Shown: positions 6,730-64,000 of the stretch, one piece after another
Position numbering within the stretch: position 1 is the first letter of the stretch
How the letters are laid out: every line of letters starts with the position of its first letter
Source: Novakomyces olei
Taxonomy: Eukaryota
Reading direction: 5' to 3'
DNA length: 64,000 nucleotides
Assembly: GCA_016906335.1 (NCBI GenBank)
Contig: JADEYG010000015.1
Span: forward strand, 558,001-622,000
Notes under the pieces: generated by a model
Told to the model about the DNA's origin: nothing
The model's database searches: none
Seen by the model: the letters and a program-made list of their open reading frames with translations, nothing else
Translations under genes and position numbers: made by a program

Positions 6730-9700
6730 CTAGTCCACCAGTGTCTGGAACCGTTCCTGGATTTTTGTGAGCAGGCTCTCGTAGCGCTTGGTAAGCGCTT
6801 CTTCTCCGTCAGCCTGAGGATTTTCAAACTTCATGCTGCTCAGAGCGTGCATGAGATCAGCTACCTTTTCACGCAACGAGGCCCACGAAGTCTCGTTGTC
6901 CGAGACTGCCTGGATCGCATGCGTGTAAAACGTAATCATCCCCTTCATAATGTAAAAAGTCTTGTACAGCGGGCAGTTTCTGTCATACTCAGAGTACCCA
7001 TTCTGCTGCAGGAAATCGTCCTTTATCAGCCCGGCCACATCTAGAGTGACCTTGTCCGGTTCGCTGAGTGCCGATTTGCCTACCAGCTGAATAATCTCCG
7101 CCATTGACTCCTCCTGCTGGATAATGTCCTTGATTTTATCCCTCATTTCAGTAAACCCAGGCAGTTCAGCATCGTACCAAGGCTGGAGGGCACCCGTGTA
7201 CTTTGAGTATGAGACAGATGTATTGATAGAGGGGAAATGCTTGCGCTGAGCCAGTTTCTTGTCCAGGCCCCAAAACACTTGCACAATACCCAGAGTCGCA
7301 GAAGTTACGGGGTCAGAAAAGTCTCCACCGGGTGGTGATACAGCACCAACGATAGAAACGGTTCCGTTTCGCTCTGGGCTGCCAAGGCAAGTTACACTGC
7401 CCGCTCTTTCATAGAATGAAGCTAATTTCGCACCCAGGTAAGCCGGGTAGCCTGAATCAGCCGGCATTTCTGCCAATCGGCCAGAAATTTCACGCAGAGC
7501 TTCAGCCCAGCGTGAAGTGGAGTCAGCCATCATTGCCACGTTCTTGCCCTGATCACGGAAATACTCTGCCAGCGTAATGCCGGTGTAAATAGAAGCCTCA
7601 CGAGCCGCTACAGGCATGTTTGAGGTATTAGCAACAAGAGTAGTTCGCTTCATAATCGACTCGTTTCGCCCACCGACATCGATCGTCAGCTCGGGGAAGT
7701 CCATCAGCACTTCCGCCATCTCGTTCCCACGTTCGCCACAATTGTGCACAACTGCCAAGTTTGACAAAAGGAACTCGTGGTCCGATTCACGAGGCAGCGT
7801 TACGCCATAGTAATGAGCAGGAGCAGCATTCATGCCGATACTGAACGAAAACGGCTGCGGCTTGCGTTCCACAAACGCTTCTGCGGCTCGGCACTTTGCC
7901 TGACCGCCTGTGCGGACTGAAAAGCTCTTGTTTGCACACCTTTCAAACACAGAGTCAAGCGCTTCATTCTGCTCAAAGCCTACTGTAAAAGACGGCGGAC
8001 TGTAAGAGCAGCCAGCGGTAAAGGACTCGGGGCGCCTTGTGGAGTATTGCACCCGGATTCCAAGTGATCTGGCCAGTTTGACAATGCCCGCCTGCACAGG
8101 CAGACTAGCTGCTCTGACACTGAAAGAGGTGCAAGCAGCGCTTTCCTCCACGCTTCCGTCCACGCTTCCAAGAGCATCAAAGAGACCGGCTAGAAACTGC
8201 TCACGAACACTAAACTGCTCACTGGCAAACTGCTCAGGCACACATTTGCCTGCCCGACCACGGACGCCAACGGCACAGGCAATGTCATACAGAGACCTGC
8301 CTGCCAAACTACCGCCGGGCACATTGCTCTCGCTCACGTACAGCAGCTCTCCATCCACCGACTCGTGGAATCCCTCGTCTTTTTCTTCTTCAACAGCAAC
8401 CTGACCAGACTCTGGAGAATAATCAATGCCCAGCTGGCTCCCGTACTCGCAGACACGCTGCAAAAAGTGCTCCTGTCTTGCACTAATATAGAAACTAGAC
8501 GCGTCCGGTCGGCCAGCACCTACCCAGGCACCCAGCAGGTAAGCCGCTGCCTCTGTGGCAGCCGCGCTGCCCATAATTTTCGCCAAAACTGGCCGCTCAT
8601 ACAGCACTGGGCTGATCAGCTGCACAGTACTTGCACTGACCTTGGGCGAGAGCAAAGCATAGTCTCTCGCTTCTAAATTGTAGTGCAAATCTTTTTGCTC
8701 TTTAGCAAACTGCTCTGCTTCCTGCACCGTACGGAAATCCCTCTCCGCTTGCTGAGGCAGGGAAACCATGCGAGCAGTGTGCTTGCCTCGTGCGGGAACG
8801 TGTACGTCTTGCATCTCAAAGTACGAGACACGAGTCTCCCCAGTGATTGTAGGCACATTCAAAGTTTGCAAGACAAGCAGGTGAGTAGCGTTGCAAGTGT
8901 AAGAAAGCCCAGCTGTTTCTTGCTGACCGTTCAGCTTTTCTGTTACTGTATACATCTCTGAGTAACCACGGGGCAGAGCGACTACCTCGCGGGGCTCTCC
9001 GTCTCGGCCCATAACAGAATCGCCAACGGCAATTTCCTGGACGGGCTTATCCCCACCATCTGCCATCAGAACCATAGTGTCAGCGGCAAAGCAGCCAACG
9101 TACACAATGAGATCAGAGTTTGAATATTTGCTCAGAGATTGAGAAATAACCGTCTTTCCACATCCAAAGGCCCCAGGAATAGCAGTAGTTCCACCCTGGA
9201 CACAGGGAAACAGGGAGTCAAGGACTCTCTGGCCCGTCAAAAGCGGCTGATTAGCCGACAGCTTTTCGCTCGTGGGTCTCGGTACACGTACAGGCCAATT
9301 GTGCATCATTGTAAACCTCTGCTTGCGTCCATCAAACTCGACTTCGAGCACTTCGTCCTGCAACGTGTACTCGCCTTTGTCAGCGATAAAAGTTATTGTA
9401 CCACGTGCTCGCGGGGGCAGCATGAGCTTATGGTCATGGTAAAGCGAGTTCTCCCATACAGTGCCATAGATATCACCACCGGTGATATGATCGCCGACTT
9501 TTAAGGGCCCGGGAGTGAAGCCATAAGTACGCTGTCTGTCCAATGCTTCAGTTGCAATTCCACGAGGGATGTAAATGCTCTTGCTGTGCTCGGCAATCTG
9601 CTTCAGCGGTCGCTGAATACCATCGTAAATTGTCTCCGCCAGACCAGGACCCAGCTCCACAGATAAGGGTTTTCCCGTTCGCAGTACTGGATCGCCGACT

Positions 9701-10382
9701 GTAAGGCCGGACGTTTCCTCATACACCTGAATCGTACATTTATCCCGGTCGATACGAATAACTTCGCCCACAAGAGCATCGTGTCCTACTCGCACAAGCT
9801 CGTACATGGCACATCCAAGCAGATCGGCAGCCACCACCACTGGCAATGTGTTAGAAACAATTAATTGGAAGTGCGTTAGAAATAAAGAATTGGAAGTGCG
9901 TTAGAAACAAAAATTGGAAAGGCGCCCAGTAAAAACCCTTGGCTTTGAAGCATTCAATTTTGCCAAAAGACTAAAGCAAGACACGCAGGTGTGGAAATGA
10001 ATAGACAACTGGTCGAGATCAAAGCATAGAGAAAAAGAAGGATGAATGGTTCAATAGTTCAATAGAAAAAGCCTCCAGACAAAAAAGACTCGAGACAAAA
10101 AGCACGGGTTTAAATTAGATGGTACGAGAAAGTCGTAATGGCAGGTAAGGCAAGAGCAATGAAAGCGTCGGTGTCTCGTATAACCTACCTGGCCCGGAAA
10201 CACTGAAAACCTGTATGGCGTCAATCAAATTGTAACAGCATTGCTCAACTTACATGACCGTATTCGTCTTCACGTGCCTCATCGACACGGCGAACTTCGC
10301 GCTTTGCGTTTTCTAAGCCGCCGGCCTATTAATTGGCATTAGTCTTTACGGGAAAAGATAAGACTCTGGAGCCACTCACCAT
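6730..10382 (-). CDS. VMA1: V-ATPase catalytic subunit A precursor containing an intein; exons 10382-10380 (ATG only), 10325-10254, 10210-10189, 9839-6730
   Basis: Spliced N-terminus [11 protein letters not shown]...VFSVSGPVVVA; P-loop [39 protein letters not shown]. Confidence 0.98.
7741..9093 (-). mobile_element. VDE: VMA1 intein (451 aa, PI-SceI/VDE homologue) with degenerate LAGLIDADG homing endonuclease domain
   Basis: In-frame insertion at VYVG|CGERGNE; begins [13 protein letters not shown], block B TCNATH, ends [11 protein letters not shown] followed by Cys+1; LAGLIDADG-like [10 protein letters not shown] and [10 protein letters not shown]. Confidence 0.96.
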
Positions 10383-11899: not shown

Positions 11900-13405
11900 C
11901 TACCCAATTTTAACTGCCCTCCGGCGTTGCCGTGTGCGGCTATGGCTCCGTAATAACCTTTTCCAAGATTGAGTCCATTGCAGTCTGTTCTCCTGCCACA
12001 TCTTCTCCAATGTTTGTAGCGGCTCAATAGCAAAAAGTGGATCTTGGAATACTGCAGCATTTTGCGACTGCAATTCGTGTAATTGGCTGCTTGAATCAGC
12101 AGCCTGATCCAAGCTTGCTTGCGGTCCATTCCCAGTGTCGTCTTTTGCCTCTAAAGATAGCGGTAAACTGTCCCCTGAAGGCTCATTAAACAAACTGAAT
12201 TCAGCTGTGCTAGCAGGATTTTGGGATAGACCAAAGAGAGCCTTCAGCGACTGAGACGGGTCCGCCACGTTTCCAAGGTCTTTGGTATTATGCTCACCAA
12301 CAGACGTGGAATCCAGAGGCTCATGTAATGAGTTTTCGGACAATTGAAACCCGTCATTTTTAGTCTCACTTTGAGCCTCTTGGTCCGGGGAATCGTCGCT
12401 TGTAGCCTCGTCGACTTGTACCTCTTCCGAACCTGGTGCAGCGATTTCATTCTTTAGCTCCGAGCGAGGGTTAACCGCTCCACTTTTAAGCTCAAGGTCA
12501 GGAAACATCCCAGATAAAAGGCTTAAATTGCGCCGCCGTTCTTGTTCAAACATTTCAGCATCGTTGTCGGCAGAACTATTGGCAAAACTACTGTCCCCCT
12601 TCTCGTTAAAGTTTCGTGGTTCGTCCGCAGTAGCACTTTGCTCCACGTTTGCTTCCATACTGTCGTCAGAATCGCTTTGGGTTCCAAGACGGGCATTCTC
12701 GTTTAGAGACGGATCCCTGGCTGCCGTTCCATCATCCCCCCGTATACTATCTTGGTCCCTAACATTGGCAAAAGAGACGTACCCTTCGCCATCATACATC
12801 CAAGTCATTCCGGCACGGGAAGAATAGTCTGGCCGGCCCCATACTTTTGTCAACTGCTCGCTATTATGAGGGTCATTGACAGCGCGACGACGGCCGTGTG
12901 AGTCTGTAAAGTGCATAACCGCAATAGCACGACCGTACCTTCCCTTGACCCACCCTGCTACCTGCTGATGTGAGCGTAAAGCCTTGTCTGTCATAAGCTG
13001 CGTTCGTTCAGCGTGCATTTCGCCCTGTATTAGCCCCTTCTCGAGACGTACGCGTTTTCTTGCACTTGCAGATTGATCTCCTTGCCCACTTTGCGGCTGA
13101 ACAGCCGACTTTTCTGCCGCTAAACGGTCTATGAATACAGGTTTTGCCGGTGCGACTTGCAGCCTTTCTCCTTTGTACACTGAATGGTGGAGGATTGTAC
13201 GGCACCGGTGCCATTGCTCTGGTGTAGTGGTGAGTGTAGCGTAGGCAAACCTTTGGTGTCTAACATCCGCCGACTTGTCCACTATTTCCACATCTCTGGA
13301 TTCAATGCTGCCAAACGGGGATAAGCGCACACAAATGTCGCTGACCGTTACGCTTGGTGCAACATTTCCAATCCACACTCGCTGCTTTATTGGCTCTTTA
13401 TCCAT
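11900..13405 (-). CDS. N-terminal RRM protein, probably nucleolar (Nop8/NOL8-like)
   Basis: First ATG gives MDKEPIKQRVWIGNV..LSPFG..FAYATL..YKGERLQVAPAKP (RRM), followed by a low-complexity acidic region. Confidence 0.65.
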   Translation of the reverse strand: MDKEPIKQRVWIGNVAPSVTVSDICVRLSPFGSIESRDVEIVDKSADVRHQRFAYATLTTTPEQWHRCRTILHHSVYKGERLQVAPAKPVFIDRLAAEKSAVQPQSGQGDQSASARKRVRLEKGLIQGEMHAERTQLMTDKALRSHQQVAGWVKGRYGRAIAVMHFTDSHGRRRAVNDPHNSEQLTKVWGRPDYSSRAGMTWMYDGEGYVSFANVRDQDSIRGDDGTAARDPSLNENARLGTQSDSDDSMEANVEQSATADEPRNFNEKGDSSFANSSADNDAEMFEQERRRNLSLLSGMFPDLELKSGAVNPRSELKNEIAAPGSEEVQVDEATSDDSPDQEAQSETKNDGFQLSENSLHEPLDSTSVGEHNTKDLGNVADPSQSLKALFGLSQNPASTAEFSLFNEPSGDSLPLSLEAKDDTGNGPQASLDQAADSSSQLHELQSQNAAVFQDPLFAIEPLQTLEKMWQENRLQWTQSWKRLLRSHSRTRQRRRAVKIG

Positions 13406-14153
13406 ACTCTGGCGCTGTAATATAAAGGAACAAACAGTTGGCTCGTAGCCAAGCCAAATGGCTCTGCTGTGAAATTTACAAAACTCGATTGTTAAACCTT
13501 TATCAATAACATTTGGTCCCAATAGCAAAGCGAGTCTGTGCCGACAATCGGCTCGCAAAAGCAGAAATGTTGGCGATAGCAGAATATTTGTGCGACAGAA
13601 AAATAATTTAATTTAAATGTACAGCTTTTATCACACACGCGATTGTTTATACGCAGTCAGAGTGCAATATTTTTTTACTAGTATAAAGCTTTTTGGCAAA
13701 GTGTCAAAGTAGTACATGAAAAGTTTATCTACAACATTTGCCAAAACATGAGACACATGGAATTATTTATGCAATATATTCGGCACATAAAACCTATCCT
13801 CTCGTACACAATTTTTGCCAAATGCCCAACATTTTCCAACACTTTCCAACACTTTGGCGAGCACATCAAATTGTGCCACACAGCTTTTGCTGTACACACT
13901 TTGGATAAAGTTTTGCCTTTTGCGATTTCAGCATTTGCGGAAGACTATATTACAAAGTGGCGTTTCTTACCTTTGAATAGGAAGGATTACCAACTTCGCG
14001 ATATACATTATTATTTTCCACACCTGTCATTCATCATACATTACCTATATATTACGTACCTTATCCCAGACTGGAAATGAATATACTGTCATTGACGAGC
14101 GACTATTTGCTGTCAGCCCACATTTGAGGAGCTAATCAATTTGAAACGTTTCA

Positions 14154-35015: not shown

Positions 35016-37067
<2,052 letters not shown>

Positions 37068-41289: not shown

Positions 41290-42746
41290 TCAACCCCAAA
41301 CATCAGCACTGATCCCCGTTACAAAACTCGTAGCTGGTGCTTTAGATGAAGGTTTTGAAAAAGATGAGCGCCAAAGGCTGCTGGAATCAGAGCTGCCACT
41401 CCCACCAGCTGAAGACCAGGAAGAAGCGAAATTTGACAGACCGCTGGGAAATCCAAAGGTAGCGGAAGACGAAGCAGAAGTAGGCGCAGACAAATTGGAA
41501 ACTGGACCTGGTGAGGCAGTCCAAGTAGGTGAGGGCTGCAAAGCATAAGCTGGCCGAGTTCCGATGGGCGGGATACGAGGCAAAGAAGCTTTAGCAGATT
41601 TCATATCCTCGGTTTCTCGACCCGACCCGGTTTTAAGAGACGAGGAGGATAAAGAATCGCTACGGTCTTGGGCAGAAAAGCTAGAATGAAACGAATCTGC
41701 CAGACTATCTGCTCTGCTGTCGATTCCACCGCCCGAAATTCCAGTATTGGTATTTGGAGCTACTGCTGCTGTGGCTGACGATTGCAGGGAAGACAGAGAG
41801 GCAGCCGAAGGAGAGGCAGCAGATGGAGGTAATCCTGAAGCCGCAAAAAGAAGCGGATGAACCCCGTGTCCATTTATGCCTGTATTTAATGATGAATCGT
41901 TTGAACAACTGCTACGCAAATCAAATGCAGGCGAGCCGTCTCCCCCAAAGGCAGAAGACTTAGGAGCAGAAGCAGCTGAGGAAGGTTTGAACCCTACTCC
42001 TTCAAAGGAATTGCCGCTATTGACAGCAGTGCTCGAGGCCAGATTGCTGCTGGTGCCGCTGGGAATAGTGCTCTGCTGAATAGAAGAGGGGAAAGACGCG
42101 CTTTGAAAATTTGAGTACCCAGGCGAAGGCTGCTGTGCTGCTGCAGCGCTGCTCATTCCTGGAGCCGGACGAAAATCGTCATAGCCCATTAGACTCTTGT
42201 GCAGTACTTCCCGACGGCCGCCGTAAAGCTTCCCCGCTTTAGCCAAATTTTCAATTGACTGATCAACTTCTGCTTGGGTTAGCTCTGTACCGAGCAGGTG
42301 CATGGCAGAAAAAAGTTGGGAGGAGGAAGTGTCAAAGTCTTCAGGGGGCAAAGAAGTGTAAAATTTCAGAATCAATATAATAGAACGCAGTATAGAAAAA
42401 AACAAAAAATACAACGAAATAAATTCAAAGAGGTTGCCACTCGAAGAAATTGCGGCATTGTAAACAAACAAGCAAAACCAATCGCGCCACCCAAAGGCAG
42501 CAAATCAAATCTTGGAATAATCGGAATCTTTTGATTAGAGCAGCAGCTCCTGCGAAAATGTGCGGAAGGATGAAACAGGGAAATAGCGTACCTTCAAACT
42601 GTTGCTGAAAGGAAAGATCGTCGTTTGCCGCTACTAAACAACGCGTCAATATCAAAATGCTTCTAATTGCAAGACGAAAACTTACAGTTGCTCCAAGACG
42701 ACGATAAAGGTCGCGAGTACCCGGCAATTCCGTCGCCGAAGGACAT
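41290..42746 (-). CDS. Ser-rich low-complexity protein of unknown function; 5' structure uncertain
   Basis: Long open frame ending SADVWG; upstream exons 42746-42686 and 42630-42592 join in frame via an AAG acceptor at 42339; alternative start ATG at 42303. Confidence 0.6.
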
Positions 42747-46919: not shown

Positions 46920-47726
46920 TCAACAATTTTGCTTGAGCGACAAATATTCTTGAGGGAGCCTCGGGGGCAAAAATGGGAAGCACAGTTCAAACACTTCATC
47001 AACATCAAAAAATTGTCCTATTTCATGCTGAATAAGATGGCTTTCGTTGATAGCCATTAACGCATTTTTCACATTAGAGTGAGCTGAAAGCGACATTACA
47101 GTGGCACGGCAGCTATTTATTGTAGCAATGAAATGACACGGATCCTTTCCGGGAAATAAGGCTTTTGAGAGTGTTGGGGTAGCATGGCAGTGAGCATAAT
47201 TACTGAAATAAGTCCTCGTATACATCTCATGCGTAGCAAGTTTGAACTGCGTTTCGTTTGTCGTATTCAAAGCTCTCAAAGGCTCGAGTGCTTTGCACAA
47301 AAACCAACTAGCCACTTCAGAAGCCTCTTGATGAGCCGCAAAGCAACAAGTTTTATTCCATGGTTTTTCCAGACACTCTTCCTCATAAAACAAGACTCTT
47401 AATCCATGAACTTCATGCATAACCCTACACAATTCTCGGTCGGCGACTTTTCCATGTCTAGTAATGGCCTCATTGTAATACCAAAAGTCGCCCTTTTCCC
47501 AAGCCAGAGGTTTCAGCAAAAAGGGGAAAGGTTCATAGAACCCGTATTCACGCATACCATGGTTCAGCCTCCAATCATCAAAAATATGAGCAGACGATGA
47601 ATTTTCCAGCACGAAGCTTGCTCTCGTCGCAAACTTTTTCGTGCACAAGGCCAGTAGAATTGCCATGCTTAATATTTGCTGCATTGCAGGTACGACCGTG
47701 GAATGATCAGAAAAAGGTATAAACAC
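46920..47726 (-). CDS. Hypothetical orphan ORF (about 250-270 aa)
   Basis: Long stop-free frame in AT-rich surroundings; no family recognised. Confidence 0.4.
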   Translation of the reverse strand: MFIPFSDHSTVVPAMQQILSMAILLALCTKKFATRASFVLENSSSAHIFDDWRLNHGMREYGFYEPFPFLLKPLAWEKGDFWYYNEAITRHGKVADRELCRVMHEVHGLRVLFYEEECLEKPWNKTCCFAAHQEASEVASWFLCKALEPLRALNTTNETQFKLATHEMYTRTYFSNYAHCHATPTLSKALFPGKDPCHFIATINSCRATVMSLSAHSNVKNALMAINESHLIQHEIGQFFDVDEVFELCFPFLPPRLPQEYLSLKQNC

Positions 47727-53316: not shown

Positions 53317-55290
53317 TTACATCACATAACGTCGACGCGGAGTTGCACCGACCTCGATAGAATCTCGTCGGCCGTGTAGTCGTCGATGGCAATAGCAGCA
53401 ACGGCAATCACAATCCACGTCACTTTCCTCGTCCAGCTCTTCCCTGTCGTAATCGTACTCATCCTCCTCATCAGCGATAGCATCATCATCGTCATCATCA
53501 TATATACAATCATGATCATCGTGGTCTATATGATCTGAGGGATGACACTCGCCACAATCAGGGCAGGGTTCAACATCGTCCTCCTCCAAAGCTTTATGCC
53601 CATGACCGTAATGACCGTAATTACGTCCAGTATGATCGTAGCCCGACGAAACCGATTTTTTGCCATTCATATTCCCTACATTACTACCATTGCTATTACT
53701 CCCATTTCGACCAGAATGTTTTCGTGCTTTGGCTTTGGCTTTATCCAGTAATCGCCGTCGCTCTCTAGCGGCCTTGAATTCACGTTTTTCCTTGAGATCT
53801 ACACGGCGCATCAGCATCTCTGGAACTGAGCCAAAAAGCGCCTCGTACTCGCAAATTTGACAAATCCAGCCGTCCTGTTGTATTGCACCTACACCCGCGC
53901 TCTTTAAATATTGACGACGACGCACTTCCTGCCGCGCCTTGGCGTCCAGCCTGGGTTTCGTTCGTACAGGAGGCTCTGGAGCCTCATGAGCCGAAGAAGA
54001 TTCATTGTGAGCTGCTGCCGCTCGGGGATGATGTGGTAGTGAGGGTTGGGGTGGGGGTGGTGGAGCCCGATAAGCAGAACCAGCCCTTTCGTCGTTCAAA
54101 TAGTCATCGTCTGCAGCTTGCTTATAAGGCTTTGCAGAAAGTAGTGGTGGGGGAGGTGGGGGTCCTGGCCTATGGGGCCGGGAAGATGCTGGCAATGGTG
54201 GGGGAACTAACTGATTTCGGGCCACACTCTGCTCCTGCTCATGTATCATTCTGGCCCCCGCGGCCCCCACAAGAGAGTCTGGTGGGAGTGGGGCCGCACC
54301 TTTAATCTGAGCCTTTTCTACCCCGTTCTCGGCAGAAAGAGGTTTGTAGGGCATAATTTTGAGCGGCCCATTTTTACGATACTTTATAAGGCAACCGATC
54401 CCGAAAACACAGGAAAATTCAAACTTTCCAGACGGCGGCTCCACAGAATCAATTTGCTCTGATTTGTCGCCATCGCCATCGCCATCGCCATCGCCATCGC
54501 CATCGTCATCCTCATCGTCATATTGCCCCCTTAACCGATTGGCCAGTTCAAGAGACGAATCCAGGTTTAAACTGGCCATCCTTCGTGCTCTACGGGCATC
54601 TTTGCTTTGGCTAACTGCTCTCCACATCGGATAGGAAACTCGACGCAGCCGTCTTTGAGCATTCGGAGACAGCTTAATACCTCCCATTATTCCATTATTG
54701 CTCGCAGCAGTTGTAGTGCTACCGCTGCTGCTGCTGCTGCTCCGAGGCGAATCGCTCAGGAATCCATGGTTAACGGTAGTAGGCACTTTTCGTTTCTTTG
54801 TATTGACTGAGCTCTCTGCCCAGTCGTACCGATAGTTGTATAAAGCATCTTCCTCCTCCTCCTCCTCTCCCTCTTCATCGTCCAGAGTAATACATGTTTC
54901 TTCCATCGTAATTGCACCCTTATCGCGAGCGCCAGACTGTGATCGTGGAACCGGTGTACGTGCAAACGGGCTATTCAGCAAGAACCGAGTCGGAGCCGGG
55001 GCAACTGAGGAAACTGAGCCGGAGGATCGGGACGCTACATCTACAGGAGCAGTATTAGCACTTTTAGCGTCTGATCCAGTGCTCCTGGTATTCGCGGTGG
55101 ATCCACTAGTAACAGTACTGCCAACAGTACTGCCATCAGTACTGCCCGCCACGGGCTCCTCTACTGCTGCCACAGACTTGTCATTCTGCGATCGAAGCCG
55201 AGACTTTGGGAGCGGAAGAATGTGCCGGGACGCAATTGTGTCCACTCCATTGAGCCCTCCACTGCTCGGCCGCGAGACAGCCGCTGTCAT
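53317..55290 (-). CDS. Uncharacterised fungal protein with NTKKRKVP and WICQICEYEALFG motifs and a Cys/His/Asp-rich tail
   Basis: 657-aa intronless ORF; the WICxxCEY...LLDKAKAKARK block resembles a conserved uncharacterised fungal family (recalled). Confidence 0.75.
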   Translation of the reverse strand: MTAAVSRPSSGGLNGVDTIASRHILPLPKSRLRSQNDKSVAAVEEPVAGSTDGSTVGSTVTSGSTANTRSTGSDAKSANTAPVDVASRSSGSVSSVAPAPTRFLLNSPFARTPVPRSQSGARDKGAITMEETCITLDDEEGEEEEEEDALYNYRYDWAESSVNTKKRKVPTTVNHGFLSDSPRSSSSSSGSTTTAASNNGIMGGIKLSPNAQRRLRRVSYPMWRAVSQSKDARRARRMASLNLDSSLELANRLRGQYDDEDDDGDGDGDGDGDGDKSEQIDSVEPPSGKFEFSCVFGIGCLIKYRKNGPLKIMPYKPLSAENGVEKAQIKGAAPLPPDSLVGAAGARMIHEQEQSVARNQLVPPPLPASSRPHRPGPPPPPPLLSAKPYKQAADDDYLNDERAGSAYRAPPPPPQPSLPHHPRAAAAHNESSSAHEAPEPPVRTKPRLDAKARQEVRRRQYLKSAGVGAIQQDGWICQICEYEALFGSVPEMLMRRVDLKEKREFKAARERRRLLDKAKAKARKHSGRNGSNSNGSNVGNMNGKKSVSSGYDHTGRNYGHYGHGHKALEEDDVEPCPDCGECHPSDHIDHDDHDCIYDDDDDDAIADEEDEYDYDREELDEESDVDCDCRCCYCHRRLHGRRDSIEVGATPRRRYVM

Positions 55291-59755: not shown

Positions 59756-62066
59756 TCATATATACTTTGTAAAATCCAGAAAATCCTCCAACTGCTGAAC
59801 CTGCTGGTCCAAGCGATCCTCACCGCCGTCTCCCTCGTCACTACCGGCCGCTGCCGCGGTCTGTCCATCCGCAAGGGATCCTGAAGCGTCTTGCCGAGGC
59901 CGATCCAGCTTAAAGGCACTCCTATGAGGAGCCCCTACACGACTACACAGCTGCTCAATCTGCCTTAACCTTTCTGTCCAATTGCCATGGTACTCTGCCC
60001 CACCTCGGTTATGAATCTGTGCCAGAACACTGGCATTCAAGGCCAGCAGCCTTACAAAGAGAGCCAGGCTTTTCAATGGGACTACTCGTGGAGTGAACAC
60101 GGGACTAAACTCTGGCAGAGAGTCTCTCCGCTGCAATTGCACTTTGTAAAACAAGTGGTCGCCACTTCCATTGGCGACAACAGGGCCCTCGTAGCAAGGC
60201 GACACTACAATATTTATAAAATTAAACTGCCCTGCAATTGTATCAAACCTGTACTCCCCGCCAGACTCATTGAAAACGATAACCACAAAATCGTTACCCA
60301 AATGCCTCTTTTTCATTGTACACAACGGGTCAGTTTCCGGCCGGGTAGGCATCATTGTGGCCACGTGGTAAATGATTTGAGTGACGCTGTTCCGCCAGTA
60401 ATAAGCGTACTCGCCATCCAAATCTTGCTCCGTGTCCAGCCCACCCGTAAACACACTGCGGTTCCCACGCAACGCTGTTATCGGGCCCAGTCCCCGTAAC
60501 ATTTCATTATAGGCACGGGACCCCGTGCGGTTAGCCAGTATTTCCGTTTCCCCATACTGACCAGGCCGTACGTAAGCGATGCCGATCTTGTGCAAGTCGA
60601 CGACGGGGATCCGATCCAGCACGGCCAGAGCACGCTGCAGAGCAGCATTGTCCTTGAGCAAGTGAGGGCGTATAGAGGCATTGACATCTGGCAGGAAAAA
60701 GGATTGAAGTGCCAAGTAGCCAGCGGTAAAGGAGGAAGGCACATGGCCATTATTGGCCTCTGGATCGACTGCAAACTCAGAGGCTACTGATAAACTGCCA
60801 TCCAGGAGGGAACTGTTCAGCAGGCAAGTAAAATTCAACGTACCCGTCGGCCTCCGCACAAAGACTTGAGAAGATCCGGTTGATTGCATTGTGCTAATTG
60901 TCATTACGGAATTGCCCCTAAGCCAATGCTCTGTAGAAATTGACATTGGCTGCTGCGCTACTTGTCCAGCAGCTGCATTGCTTGCAGTAACACTGTCTTT
61001 TATGGTACTGGGACCTGTGCCTATCTCGTTCATAAGGTTGCTATACGTGAACCGTACCATCATATCGAAAAACGTTTCACACTGCTCTCGAGCATTGGGA
61101 CCCGCTTGATTAGCGAGAACAAGACCACGAATAATCCAGGGCACAAACTTTCTTCGCTCTGAAAGCCGGGTAACGAGAAACCAGGTTGCCAGTACGTTAA
61201 ATGCCAGAGTTAGTAGGTACTTTGTAATAACACTGTCCTCTTTGCGTGAGCTCTGCTTTTCTTTCTCCATCATCATTGCTGCCTCCTCATCTTCCCCCGC
61301 CGACTCTTCCTTACGTTTCCTCAAGTCTTTGTCTTCTTTTTCTCTTTCATCTCGATCCGTAGTGGCCACCCCTACTGCAGCTGCCTCTCTGGACTCTACA
61401 TTGTAATGGTGAATGTACTTTAACGCAATCCCAAAAATTTGCTTGTACTCAGCCTCTGTAAAGTTTGAACATACCGAGGGGAATCGGGCCAGTGCCTCTA
61501 GGAACTCAAGGATGTGCAAACTCAAGTTCTGCGAGGTAATAAGCTGCGATAATCGGATTAGTGAAGCCGGTAAGATTTTAGCTACTGACAGAGGCATATC
61601 CAAACAGGCCAGGTAGAAGCCATGAATACACAATCGGGCAGTTGTATGCCATTTCTGCATACATTTTAATATGGCCGCCAGCATTTCATCCTGCTGATGC
61701 TTGCCTATACTCTCACTGTACGCTATCAGCGTCACTAAAATATCAGCATAAGCCGTCATTACATCTGCTTTTCGCAGATTGTTTGGCAAATTAGTGGCCA
61801 GCTGCTTTCCGTCCGCCAATACTTCAATGACTGCCAACCTCAACTCTTGTACATGACCTAAACATTTGGTAAAAAGCGGTTTGCAACACAACATGTCCGA
61901 CAGACGGGCCAGTACAATTTTGGATACTTGCCAGTCTGTTTCAGTGGACTTTTGTACAACAGAGACACATGTCTTGATAAAAGGTACAAACGAATCAACA
62001 CGGATCGGGTGCAGTGAACTTTGCACAAGTGTATCTTCGTCAGCAGAGAAGCTTTTACTGCTGTCA

Positions 62067-62107
<41 letters not shown>

Positions 62108-64000
62108 TATTTTGCTGTAAATATTCATATTGATGTTGTTGTCAGGGTTAGCGTTATTGTTGGTATTCGCATTTCTTGCATTTCTCTTTTCATTTGCAAA
62201 TAACCGGTTCAGTGGGCCATTTAAAACGTGATCAAGTACGCCTTCCGCGTCCTTGTTACTCTGAAACGATATTGTTGAAGCAGTATCACTGTTGATTGTG
62301 GCAGTCGCTGCACTATGATGGTGCTGCTGATGGTGATGTGGGTGGTGAAAGTGAAGGGTATCGGCTCCCTTTTCTTCCGACCAGCAAAACCTCCAAGTGG
62401 GTGATTTCTTTAACACCAACTGCTGCCTGCCATCACATCGAAACTGCATGCAAAAAGCCAGTAAAATTTGCTTCACCACCAAGGGGCTTGATGCAGTATT
62501 AATCACACGCACAATACGATTTAGTGTCATTGTAAAAGCAGCCACATCAGAGGCCATAAAGGCCTCCATTAGAATTTTTAGTAGGGTATAAGTGACCAGC
62601 GAGAGGCCAGAAAATTCCGCTGTATCACAGTGCAACCGGCCGCACAATTCTACGACGATCCGTTCCTTGTCTGCTAATCCTTCACTGTCGACAAAATGTC
62701 TCTGTGACCATTGTAACATTCCCTGAATCACATTGAAATCCTCTTCCTTGGCTAGAGCAGAGAACATTGTGTTTTCCAAGTCAGTGCAGGGTATATTCAG
62801 CATTGGCAAAATTTCTGTAAAAGTTGAGAGCAAATCAAAGGCTCGCAAGCGAACAGCGGGGCTCGCGGTCCTAGTGTTTTGGAAGCATTTTGAAGCGAAA
62901 GCTACGCATTTGTCCAGCTCTTGCTTGGGCATGGCCATGAAATCCTGAGACTCGTAGTACTCGAGCACAAAGATAAGTATATCATCAGTACAAAACTGGC
63001 TAATTGAGCGGAACAGTGAAGCCAGAGCTGCTTCGTCTTGAACAGAAGAATTGTTGGATCCTTCTGTATGAGAAGCTGATTGGTAAAGTTGTTGAACGCA
63101 CGATCTTATCGACTGAGCCAATTCCTCTCCGCTTTTACGATCAGCCTCCACCGTTTCATCAAAACTGGAAGCAATTTCTTGCAAAAGCGAAAGTGACACA
63201 AGGAACTCAGTTAGCAAAAGACTGGCGGATTTATACAAACTTTCCAATATAAAGCAAATATCCTTATTTACAGCGGCATTTCGTAGCCGTAGAGCGTTTC
63301 GAATAGTAGTTAGGCAAAAAACTTTAGTCAGACCCATTGGAGTCGCCCACGAAGTGTCGAGTAAAAGATTCCCAAGTACAGAAATGGCCCCACGCGTATC
63401 CAGGATTCGTGCGCCCTTAATCTCCAAAATATTCCTTATCGACAGTAGTGTCAGAGTGGCCACGTGGCTATTTAAAAAGTTTTTCATTAGCAGCAAGGCC
63501 TCCTCTTTGAACTGTGACGTGCCAATCATGGCACTACACAAAACCTCCACAATGGGTCCACAAGCATCGGAGGGAATAACTCCGAACCGCAAAACTGCAT
63601 CAAAAATAGCTATACACCCCAGAATATCCTGTGCCGACGTAGTTTTACGCGCTACTCCTGCCAGATCCAAAAGAATCAATGAAACGTGTGGTTGAGCCAG
63701 CAGGTGAAATTGAAACTTGAAGATACTTGCTAATAGAGTATACATCCTCTGTAATTCGGATTCTGACCGTAGTGCAAAAGCAGCCGCCATCCAATCCCTT
63801 AGTACTTGAAGAATATTATCTTCAAAGGGCATTATATCCCGGCCTCCGTTACACAAAGCCTCCAAGGCAGAGATTCGGGAGCTTATGCACTCTTGTGCGT
63901 TCGGCCGGCGAACAAGGTCCTGAAAGAACATGTACCTGTCAATTGGAGCATACTCACGCTGCTCCGTGGCTAGTGCGGCTGCCATAAAATCGTAGCATTG
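59756..64000 (-). CDS. TSC2: Tuberin (Rheb-GAP), probably 5'-partial (frame open to window end)
   Basis: N-terminal helical region, WFLVTRLSERRKFV, VRRPTG, Rap-GAP domain DRIPVVDLHKIG..GGLD..IYHVATMMP..KKRHLGNDFV..GQFNFINIVV..WTERLRQI. Confidence 0.93.

Follow-up and report, generated by a model that had tools for sequence, protein, structure and literature searches.

The closest described relative of the element reported here is PI-SceI (VDE), the intein encoded in Saccharomyces cerevisiae by VMA1, the gene of the vacuolar-type ATPase (V-ATPase) catalytic subunit A. Both its Asp-218 and its Asp-326 coordinate metal and are critical for its activity (PMC1508164), and metal-binding Asp residues at the ends of the LAGLIDADG helices are described as required for activity (PMC1508164, PMC5056185). 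In this work, we analysed a 64,000-nucleotide stretch of DNA from Novakomyces olei (assembly GCA_016906335.1, contig JADEYG010000015.1, positions 558,001 to 622,000 of the forward strand), hereafter the window, in which positions are counted from its first letter. Its VMA1 gene carries an intein at the same VMA-a site as PI-SceI, with the same domain order and the same splicing residues. As an earlier note on this DNA had remarked, the length of the intein (451 residues) is near that of PI-SceI (454 residues), but the two are only about 29-30% identical, and in the window intein blocks C and D are separated by an acidic loop that differs in length. We consider it probable, at roughly 0.75, that this is a fixed, splicing-complete intein of the PI-SceI family with a dead nuclease, whose endonuclease domain is held by structural constraint.

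Such degeneration has precedents. Most VMA homing endonucleases are degenerate or non-functional, and only three have been found active in vitro (PMC1508164, PMC5056185). Butler et al. 2006 (PMC1508164) and Fernandes et al. 2016 (PMC5056185) described degenerate VMA1-a inteins of Saccharomycetes, among them those of Candida, Saccharomyces exiguus and C. glabrata. Like the window intein, they are full-length and have intact splicing blocks, with Asp replaced in block C, block E or both. They were inactive in vitro where tested, their C-D spacing varies and none of them is a mini-intein. According to these two papers no VMA-a mini-intein is known, and a further source states that 'VMA1i are all HEN(+)', HEN being the homing endonuclease (PMC5784728). 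The window intein differs from the Saccharomycete ones in that its host does not belong to Saccharomycotina, and it is at most 42% identical to any intein that we found. PhoVMA of Pyrococcus horikoshii (PDB 7qst; Beyer et al. 2022, PMC8966425) also lacks both Asp, keeps its architecture and is inactive in vitro. It is among the fold matches of the window intein (E 2.6e-9, 15% identity in the fold alignment), but it is archaeal, occupies the VMA-b site, has another accessory domain and has a partly truncated block E. As for the HO endonuclease of Saccharomyces, it has the same Hint and LAGLIDADG ancestry and is an intein relative kept by its host (PMC5056185, PMC7282813).

Splicing module and endonuclease active centre

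Subunit A is mostly encoded by an open reading frame (ORF) of 1038 codons on the minus strand (6730..9846), as are all features of the gene given below, and Pfam recognises in it the domains ATP-synt_ab, ATP-synt_ab_Xtn, ATP-synt_VA_C and ATP-synt_ab_N. The ORF contains an in-frame insert of 451 codons (7741..9093, 1353 nt), with no stop codon in this frame and 13 and 22 stops in the other frames. A word-indexed search with the intein region gave 40 proteins at E <=1e-3 among 7999 candidates scored, and 27 of the 40 are VMA1 proteins whose intein occupies the site seen in the window, the best being 37-38% identical to the window intein. The insertion point, between ...IVYVG and CGERGNEM, is the VMA-a site, and the junction is the same in all 27 of these proteins. 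Pfam assigns residues 1-450 to Hom_end_hint (E 4e-60) and residues 285-389 to Hom_end (E 4.5e-22), and in a phmmer comparison with PDB sequences, residues 1-451 align with residues 1-454 of PI-SceI (E 3.1e-47; chains 1dfa, 1vde and 1lws). By its sequence and its predicted fold, the insert (P0001) is a VMA1-a intein of the PI-SceI family.

We also considered that the insert might be an intron or an assembly artefact. Both possibilities are ruled out by the single open frame, the full-length homology and two sequencing runs, X1 and X2, which carry the stretch with 0 differences over the part that they cover; both are possible sources of the sequence and hence not independent of it. No joint across the intein was seen in the sequencing runs. 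In two other runs, X3 and X4, the matches were limited to fragments of about 35-135 nt that are less than 90% alike and fall in conserved extein parts; they evidently come from other organisms.

The splicing module has all its parts. The N-terminal core of Hint (residues 1-85, 8839..9093) comprises block A with Cys1 (TGC, 9091-9093) and block B with TCNATH (residues 66-71, 8881-8898), which ends on His71. It is followed by the equivalent of the DNA-recognition insert (residues 86-182, 8548..8838; boundaries set here from the PI-SceI alignment), which is 22-40% identical to its relatives and for which the predicted local distance difference test score (pLDDT) is mostly >90. Blocks F and G lie in the C-terminal part of Hint (residues 411-451, 7741..7863), which ends with His-Asn (CACAAT, 7741-7746) before Cys+1 (TGT, 7738-7740). 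Thus, the class-1 set of Cys1, block B His, penultimate His, terminal Asn and Cys+1 is complete, and C1, H71, D438, H439, F441, L443, N445, V449, H450 and N451 are invariant in 28 of 28 inteins aligned with MAFFT, the window intein included. The full-length, in-frame VMA1 intein with intact splicing residues that the earlier note had described is therefore borne out by the translation and the codons, in each of its coordinates and residues. With a complete Hint module, the precursor is expected to release the 451-residue intein and to join both halves of Vma1. Splicing would yield mature Vma1 and a free intein of about 50 kDa. With its 451 residues and complete endonuclease domain of 228 residues, the element is not a mini-intein, in which that domain is absent and which spans about 130-200 residues. 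Nor is it a domesticated protein of the HO type. HO represents the opposite situation, as it is free-standing, has lost splicing and has kept its nuclease, whereas the window element remains embedded in VMA1 and has kept its full set of splicing residues but lost those of the nuclease.

The LAGLIDADG endonuclease domain (residues 183-410, 7864..8547) appears to be catalytically degenerate. In the phmmer alignment to PI-SceI, D218 is replaced by Ala193 (GCT, 8515-8517) in block C, at the end of the first LAGLIDADG helix (residues 185-194, 8512..8541), and D326 by Leu308 (CTT, 8170-8172) in block E, at the end of the second one (residues 300-309, 8167..8196). This confirms the loss of both catalytic Asp, which was the core of the earlier claim; at least two nucleotide changes separate CTT from either Asp codon (GAY). 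The D229 equivalent is Ser204 (AGT, 8482..8484), and the T341 equivalent is Ala328 (GCA, 8110..8112), at a position where 21 of the 28 inteins have Thr. R231 of PI-SceI corresponds to Arg206 and is kept, H343 corresponds to Ser330, and K403 to Ser392, where the alignment is gapped and unsure. Mutagenesis work on PI-SceI has assigned roles to D229, T341, K301 and K403. Retention of the K301 equivalent, in the motif KCVP (residues 283-286), had been pointed out before, and Lys283 (AAA, 8245..8247) does stand under K301 in the alignment. This residue says little on activity, because Lys is present at that column in 23 of the 28 inteins.

An AlphaFold2 model built on the 28-row alignment has a mean pLDDT of 86 and a predicted template modelling score of 0.86, with pLDDT <50 only at residues 230-247 and 257-261. 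Its top PDB fold matches by Foldseek are the PI-SceI structures 1vde and 1lws (E about 1e-36, template modelling scores of 0.79-0.84, whole chain), and the two-domain fold, Hint with a nested LAGLIDADG domain, is predicted to be kept. Two helices packed at the domain interface, as in active LAGLIDADG enzymes, are found in the model and the motifs. Helices 177-193 and 294-308 of the model end exactly on Ala193 and Leu308, where an active enzyme has Asp or Glu at both C-terminal ends. With Ala, Ser, Leu and Ala at the positions of D218, D229, D326 and T341, the window intein should therefore not cleave DNA. Having no metal ligands, it would not cut an empty VMA1 allele and would not home, so that it would be inherited vertically only. 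The proposal of a splicing-competent but homing-dead intein thus holds at the level of sequence, and is strengthened by the replacement of the D229 and T341 equivalents.

Distribution of the loss and history of the intein

Loss of both Asp is the majority, ordinary state of VMA1-a inteins. In the 28-intein alignment, five inteins have both Asp, seven have one and 16 have neither, one of the latter having Glu at the second site. We extended this sample to 39 sequences with six further intein-bearing VMA1 matches and five matches from a search of cluster representatives (P0160-P0163 and P0168). Both Asp are present in seven of the 39 VMA1-a inteins, one in eight and neither in 24; the sample is not exhaustive, and the S. 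cerevisiae protein itself is not among the matches. Some of the added sequences are fragments, and all rows are cluster representatives. The representative search gave 2077 proteins at E <=0.001, of which only four reached E <=1e-30, and it provided no census because VMA1 proteins collapse into few 50% clusters. The named hosts of matching VMA1 inteins include Schizosaccharomyces japonicus, Scheffersomyces, Tortispora, Cyberlindnera and many Kickxellales (Coemansia, Kickxella). What is new in the window is only the host lineage and the intein sequence, whose identity to the inteins found does not exceed about 42-44%.

VMA1 inteins are on record in Pezizomycotina, Saccharomycotina, Taphrinomycotina and Pucciniomycotina (PMC5784728, Table 1 and text). 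We found VMA1-a inteins in many species of Kickxellales (Coemansia, Kickxella, Martensiomyces, Mycoemilia and Dipsacomyces; Zoopagomycota), represented by records P0008, P0012, P0017-P0023, P0025, P0116, P0117, P0133, P0153, P0162, P0163 and P0168. Nearly all of them lack both Asp; the intein of Coemansia sp. RSA 2708 (P0008) has both. Some other Coemansia have an intein-free VMA1 protein of 619-620 residues (P0122, P0137, P0148). The phylum of Kickxellales is not listed for VMA1 in Table 1 of Green et al. 2018, and a literature search on a VMA intein in Coemansia found no paper. In addition, P0160, P0119 and P0004 are VMA1 inteins in Pezizomycotina-like exteins, which group outside Saccharomycotina and Taphrinomycotina. 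Both catalytic Asp and a long C-D insert are present in P0160 and P0119, and P0160 is the intein most similar to that of the window by phmmer, at 44% identity.

The exteins point to a host related to fission yeasts. The closest named extein is that of S. japonicus (79% identity over 585 columns), and for the C-extein, identities are 81% with S. japonicus, 79% with Saitoella, 79% with S. cryophilus, 78% with S. octosporus and 77% with Savitreella, none in the collection being closer. In a quick maximum-likelihood tree of 24 exteins, the window is sister to four Schizosaccharomyces-type rows (SH-like approximate likelihood ratio test, SH-aLRT, 96), and together they nest in a group with Savitreella and Pneumocystis (96). 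We take the host only as 'Taphrinomycotina-like', because this is a single-gene tree.

The tree of the 28 inteins (441 columns) pairs the window intein with P0004 (96/82), whose extein groups with a Pezizomycotina-like row; they are joined by Tortispora (83/72) and then by S. japonicus (91/89). When the window and S. japonicus inteins are forced to be sisters, the cost is 8.8 log-likelihood units, with p = 0.228 in the approximately unbiased (AU) test. The data therefore neither reject nor demonstrate vertical descent from a Taphrinomycotina ancestor common to both. Composition gives no hint that the intein arrived recently: its GC content at third codon positions, 0.534, lies between those of the exteins, 0.506 and 0.568, and the correlation of synonymous codon fractions is r = 0.73.

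Asp is absent at the D218 position throughout this clade of four inteins, with Ala in the window, Ser in P0004, Ser in Tortispora and Ala in S. japonicus, and D326 is kept only by S. japonicus. The intein of the latter (P0003), from a Taphrinomycotina host, is 39% identical to that of the window. Their blocks C are similar, GVWVGAG in S. japonicus and GAWVGAG in the window, but the S. japonicus intein has FLAGLIDADG and Thr at T341 and is thus half-degenerate. Searching the literature for a VMA1 intein of Schizosaccharomyces japonicus by species name found no paper. The shared Ala might mean that the first site was already dead in the ancestor common to the window lineage and the fission yeasts, and that a full-length, nuclease-impaired domain has been kept by selection since; we regard this scenario as doubtful. 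The reason for such long retention after ancestral inactivation would be either an obligate partnership with Hint for splicing or a host function of the excised protein. If it were true, VMA1-a inteins would exemplify a dead homing endonuclease that is retained over a long time, and not one caught in a transient phase of the homing cycle.

Possible constraint and drift in the endonuclease domain

The open frame of the domain is no evidence of constraint, since a stop or a frameshift would also destroy the C-extein. We tested for it in two ways on the protein sequences. In the first, the intein topology was kept fixed and branch lengths were estimated separately for three partitions: the Hint core (127 columns), the DNA-recognition-like insert (114 columns) and the endonuclease domain (200 columns). 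The ratio of summed end branches between endonuclease and Hint is 1.99 for inteins with both Asp (n=5), 2.46 for those with one (n=7) and 2.86 for those with none (n=16). The window intein has a ratio of 2.69, with an end branch of 1.24 changes per site for its endonuclease domain. At the sequence level, these values indicate modest relaxation and no collapse.

The conserved positions of the domain are largely in place. Where the consensus of the other 27 inteins is strongest, the window matches it at 16 of 16 endonuclease columns (>=90% conservation) and at 17 of 21 (70-90%), and the matches fall to 13/35 (50-70%) and 20/107 (<50%) at the less conserved ones. By a leave-one-out procedure, the window intein keeps 33 of 37 conserved endonuclease positions (89%), equal to the Asp-intact inteins (89-92%). 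The four altered ones are L289F, A324F, T328A, which is the T341 site, and L383F. Invariant or nearly so across the 28 inteins are, among others, Y185, L186, G188, R297, E298, A302, G303, D306, G309 and A341-G345. The last of these belong to ARSLGI (residues 341-346, 8056..8073), the most conserved endonuclease-domain motif of the family, in which R342 and S343 are invariant and A341, L344 and G345 reach at least 90%. Changes thus appear to have fallen on catalytic and variable positions and to have spared the fold core, a pattern that fits selection for a foldable insert, an idea already put forward for other inteins.

Structural constraint probably explains how a dead domain persists. It is nested within the Hint fold of a needed host protein, in which stops or frameshifts would destroy Vma1, and its removal would need a rare, well-placed in-frame deletion leaving the Hint fold intact. 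A misfolded insert would impair splicing and lower V-ATPase output; selection would therefore keep the structural core while catalytic and surface positions drift. Deletion of the HEN domain did impair splicing in several inteins (PMC8966425). Several points nevertheless weigh against this explanation. The step to structural constraint is drawn from protein-level conservation only, with the nearest inteins about 40% identical, and the test of conserved positions cannot split present constraint from that of an earlier active phase. The endonuclease/Hint ratio of the window, which exceeds the Asp-intact value and is near the Asp-less one, speaks for some relaxation, the groups being small and non-independent. 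Furthermore, in a published comparison of two yeasts whose enzymes are inactive, the ratio of synonymous to nonsynonymous substitutions (dS/dN) in the endonuclease domain was 0.67 (PMC1508164), a value suggestive of neutral or relaxed evolution, at least in some lineages. These two observations would also suit a pure decay through the homing cycle, in which a fixed intein with a useless endonuclease drifts neutrally towards loss, its full length and open frame being kept only because stops and frameshifts would ruin VMA1, with too little time elapsed or no suitable deletion at hand. So would the loss of four active-centre residues, one of them by at least two nucleotide changes, the long end branch of the intein (1.18 versus a median of 0.46) and the enrichment of its endonuclease domain in Ala, Ser and Gly (0.34, versus 0.22-0.24 in other parts of the intein). 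However, drift alone does not account well for such uneven substitutions between the most and the least conserved positions, nor for a domain that is still confidently modelled as a PI-SceI-like fold. VRE..LAGL.D..G and ARSLGI are invariant or nearly so across 28 inteins, 23 of which lack at least one Asp, and no VMA-a mini-intein is on record (PMC1508164, PMC5784728), which is unexpected under neutral deletion. Altogether, we hold pure decay to be unlikely.

Two further explanations invoke a domain that still does something. One is that the excised intein or its endonuclease domain is kept because it has gained another role in the host, for instance in regulation or in binding DNA at specific sequences. 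Maintenance of the fold and of a conserved non-catalytic core would be in line with this, as would the kept K301 and R231 equivalents. The Ala at D218 common to the window and S. japonicus, whose sisterhood the AU test allows, makes a very long persistence possible, and nuclease-dead LAGLIDADG folds bind DNA elsewhere; WhiA chains are among the weaker fold matches (ranks 20-21). Yet there is no specific sign of such a role. With a net charge of -8, an isoelectric point of 4.93 and K+R of 0.09, the endonuclease domain is acidic, and the equivalent of the DNA-recognition insert has a net charge of -1; neither hints at a DNA-binding surface, although Asp-intact inteins cover a similar range. The conserved columns are identical in active and inactive relatives, a better fit to a fold core than to a new interface, and a dead state in most lineages (24/39) fits loss of function better than repeated gain, so that we consider co-option improbable. 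An endonuclease that is still active through other acidic residues is hardly credible. It would use D197, D306 or D312, or a 14-residue acidic stretch, in place of the lost Asp, and there are indeed acidic residues near both motifs and such a stretch inside the endonuclease domain, as previously noted (residues 234-247, 8353..8394). D197 and D306, however, have counterparts in the alignment with PI-SceI, namely D222 and D324, and the active enzyme carries these in addition to D218 and D326. The helix ends themselves are Ala and Leu, the D229 and T341 equivalents are gone as well, and the alignment and the model give no sign of other acidic residues taking over in the active sites. Moreover, the VMA inteins without Asp that have been tested, in yeast (PMC1508164) and in the form of PhoVMA (PMC8966425), are inactive. 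The acidic stretch belongs to the hypervariable loop between blocks C and D, which ranges from 1 to 84 residues across the 28 VMA1-a inteins (columns as cut out) and has at least 30 residues with 7-20 Asp and Glu in 10 of them, two of these, P0005 and P0011, having both Asp. That the spacing between blocks C and D varies among VMA inteins had already been noted (PMC1508164). We thus rule out this stretch as a substitute active site, since it lies in a hypervariable, predicted-disordered loop (pLDDT <50) away from the metal-binding helix ends that is long and acidic in 10/28 inteins; judging by the alignment and the model, it is a family-typical floppy loop. Of the three fates that the earlier note had offered for the domain, retention for folding hence fits best, given the conserved positions kept and the confident model, co-option for DNA binding is without support and free decay is only partly compatible with the data.

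The VMA1 gene, other reading frames and significance

The final, large exon of VMA1, intein included, spans 6730..9839 according to the ORF and Pfam matches, with its stop codon at 6730-6732. It consists of an N-extein portion (9094..9839) that ends at the intein junction, the intein and the C-extein (6733..7740), which starts with Cys+1 in CGERGNEM. Its probable 3' splice site is CAG|TG at 9840/9839, placed from the sequence and from homology to ...SGPVVVA of S. japonicus. GT/AG sites and homology suggest two short upstream exons, one ending in ...GH (about 10254-10325) and one encoding VFSVSGP (about 10189-10210), separated by a 43-nt intron, GTAAGT...CAG. Short exons of this kind would encode the N-terminal ~35 residues of Vma1; the donors are GTAAGT or GTAGGT, the acceptors CAG and the branch motifs of the CTAAC type. 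This upstream search by GT/AG sites and homology did not find the ATG exon. Within the last intron, at 9850-9905 just ahead of its 3' splice site, the motif TTTCTAAC occurs three times in about 55 nt, and copies 1 and 2 have the direct repeat TTTCTAACGCACTTCCAATT in common. This triple motif offers several candidate branch points ahead of the CAG acceptor at 9840.

Elsewhere in the window, a long tuberin/Tsc2-like ORF (Pfam DUF3384, Tuberin and Rap_GAP) occupies 59756-63985 on the minus strand and runs past the window end. It has four matches in a collection of 5.8 billion proteins, the best of which, from a Dothideomycete, is 30% identical over half its length. As the best match is merely 30% identical, the host lineage appears to be poorly sampled. 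Five other ORFs of 268-657 codons have no Pfam match at E <=1e-5 (11900-13558, 35661-37067, 41290-42471, 46920-47726 and 53317-55290, all on the minus strand). The first of them is rich in Ser, Asp and Glu, and in some of the five the frame may run through the introns of a spliced gene.

For annotation, the 1353-nt insert in VMA1 should be recorded as an intein, and not as an intron or a fusion. With the window, a family known mainly from budding yeasts gains a well-preserved VMA1-a intein whose host lineage is Taphrinomycotina-like and poorly sampled. It would be one more case, far from the budding yeasts, in which the nuclease is dead, the fold core is kept and the domain has never been trimmed. 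As such, it bears on the question of whether the homing cycle of VMA1 inteins runs to deletion, or whether the endonuclease domain may be structurally indispensable for splicing.

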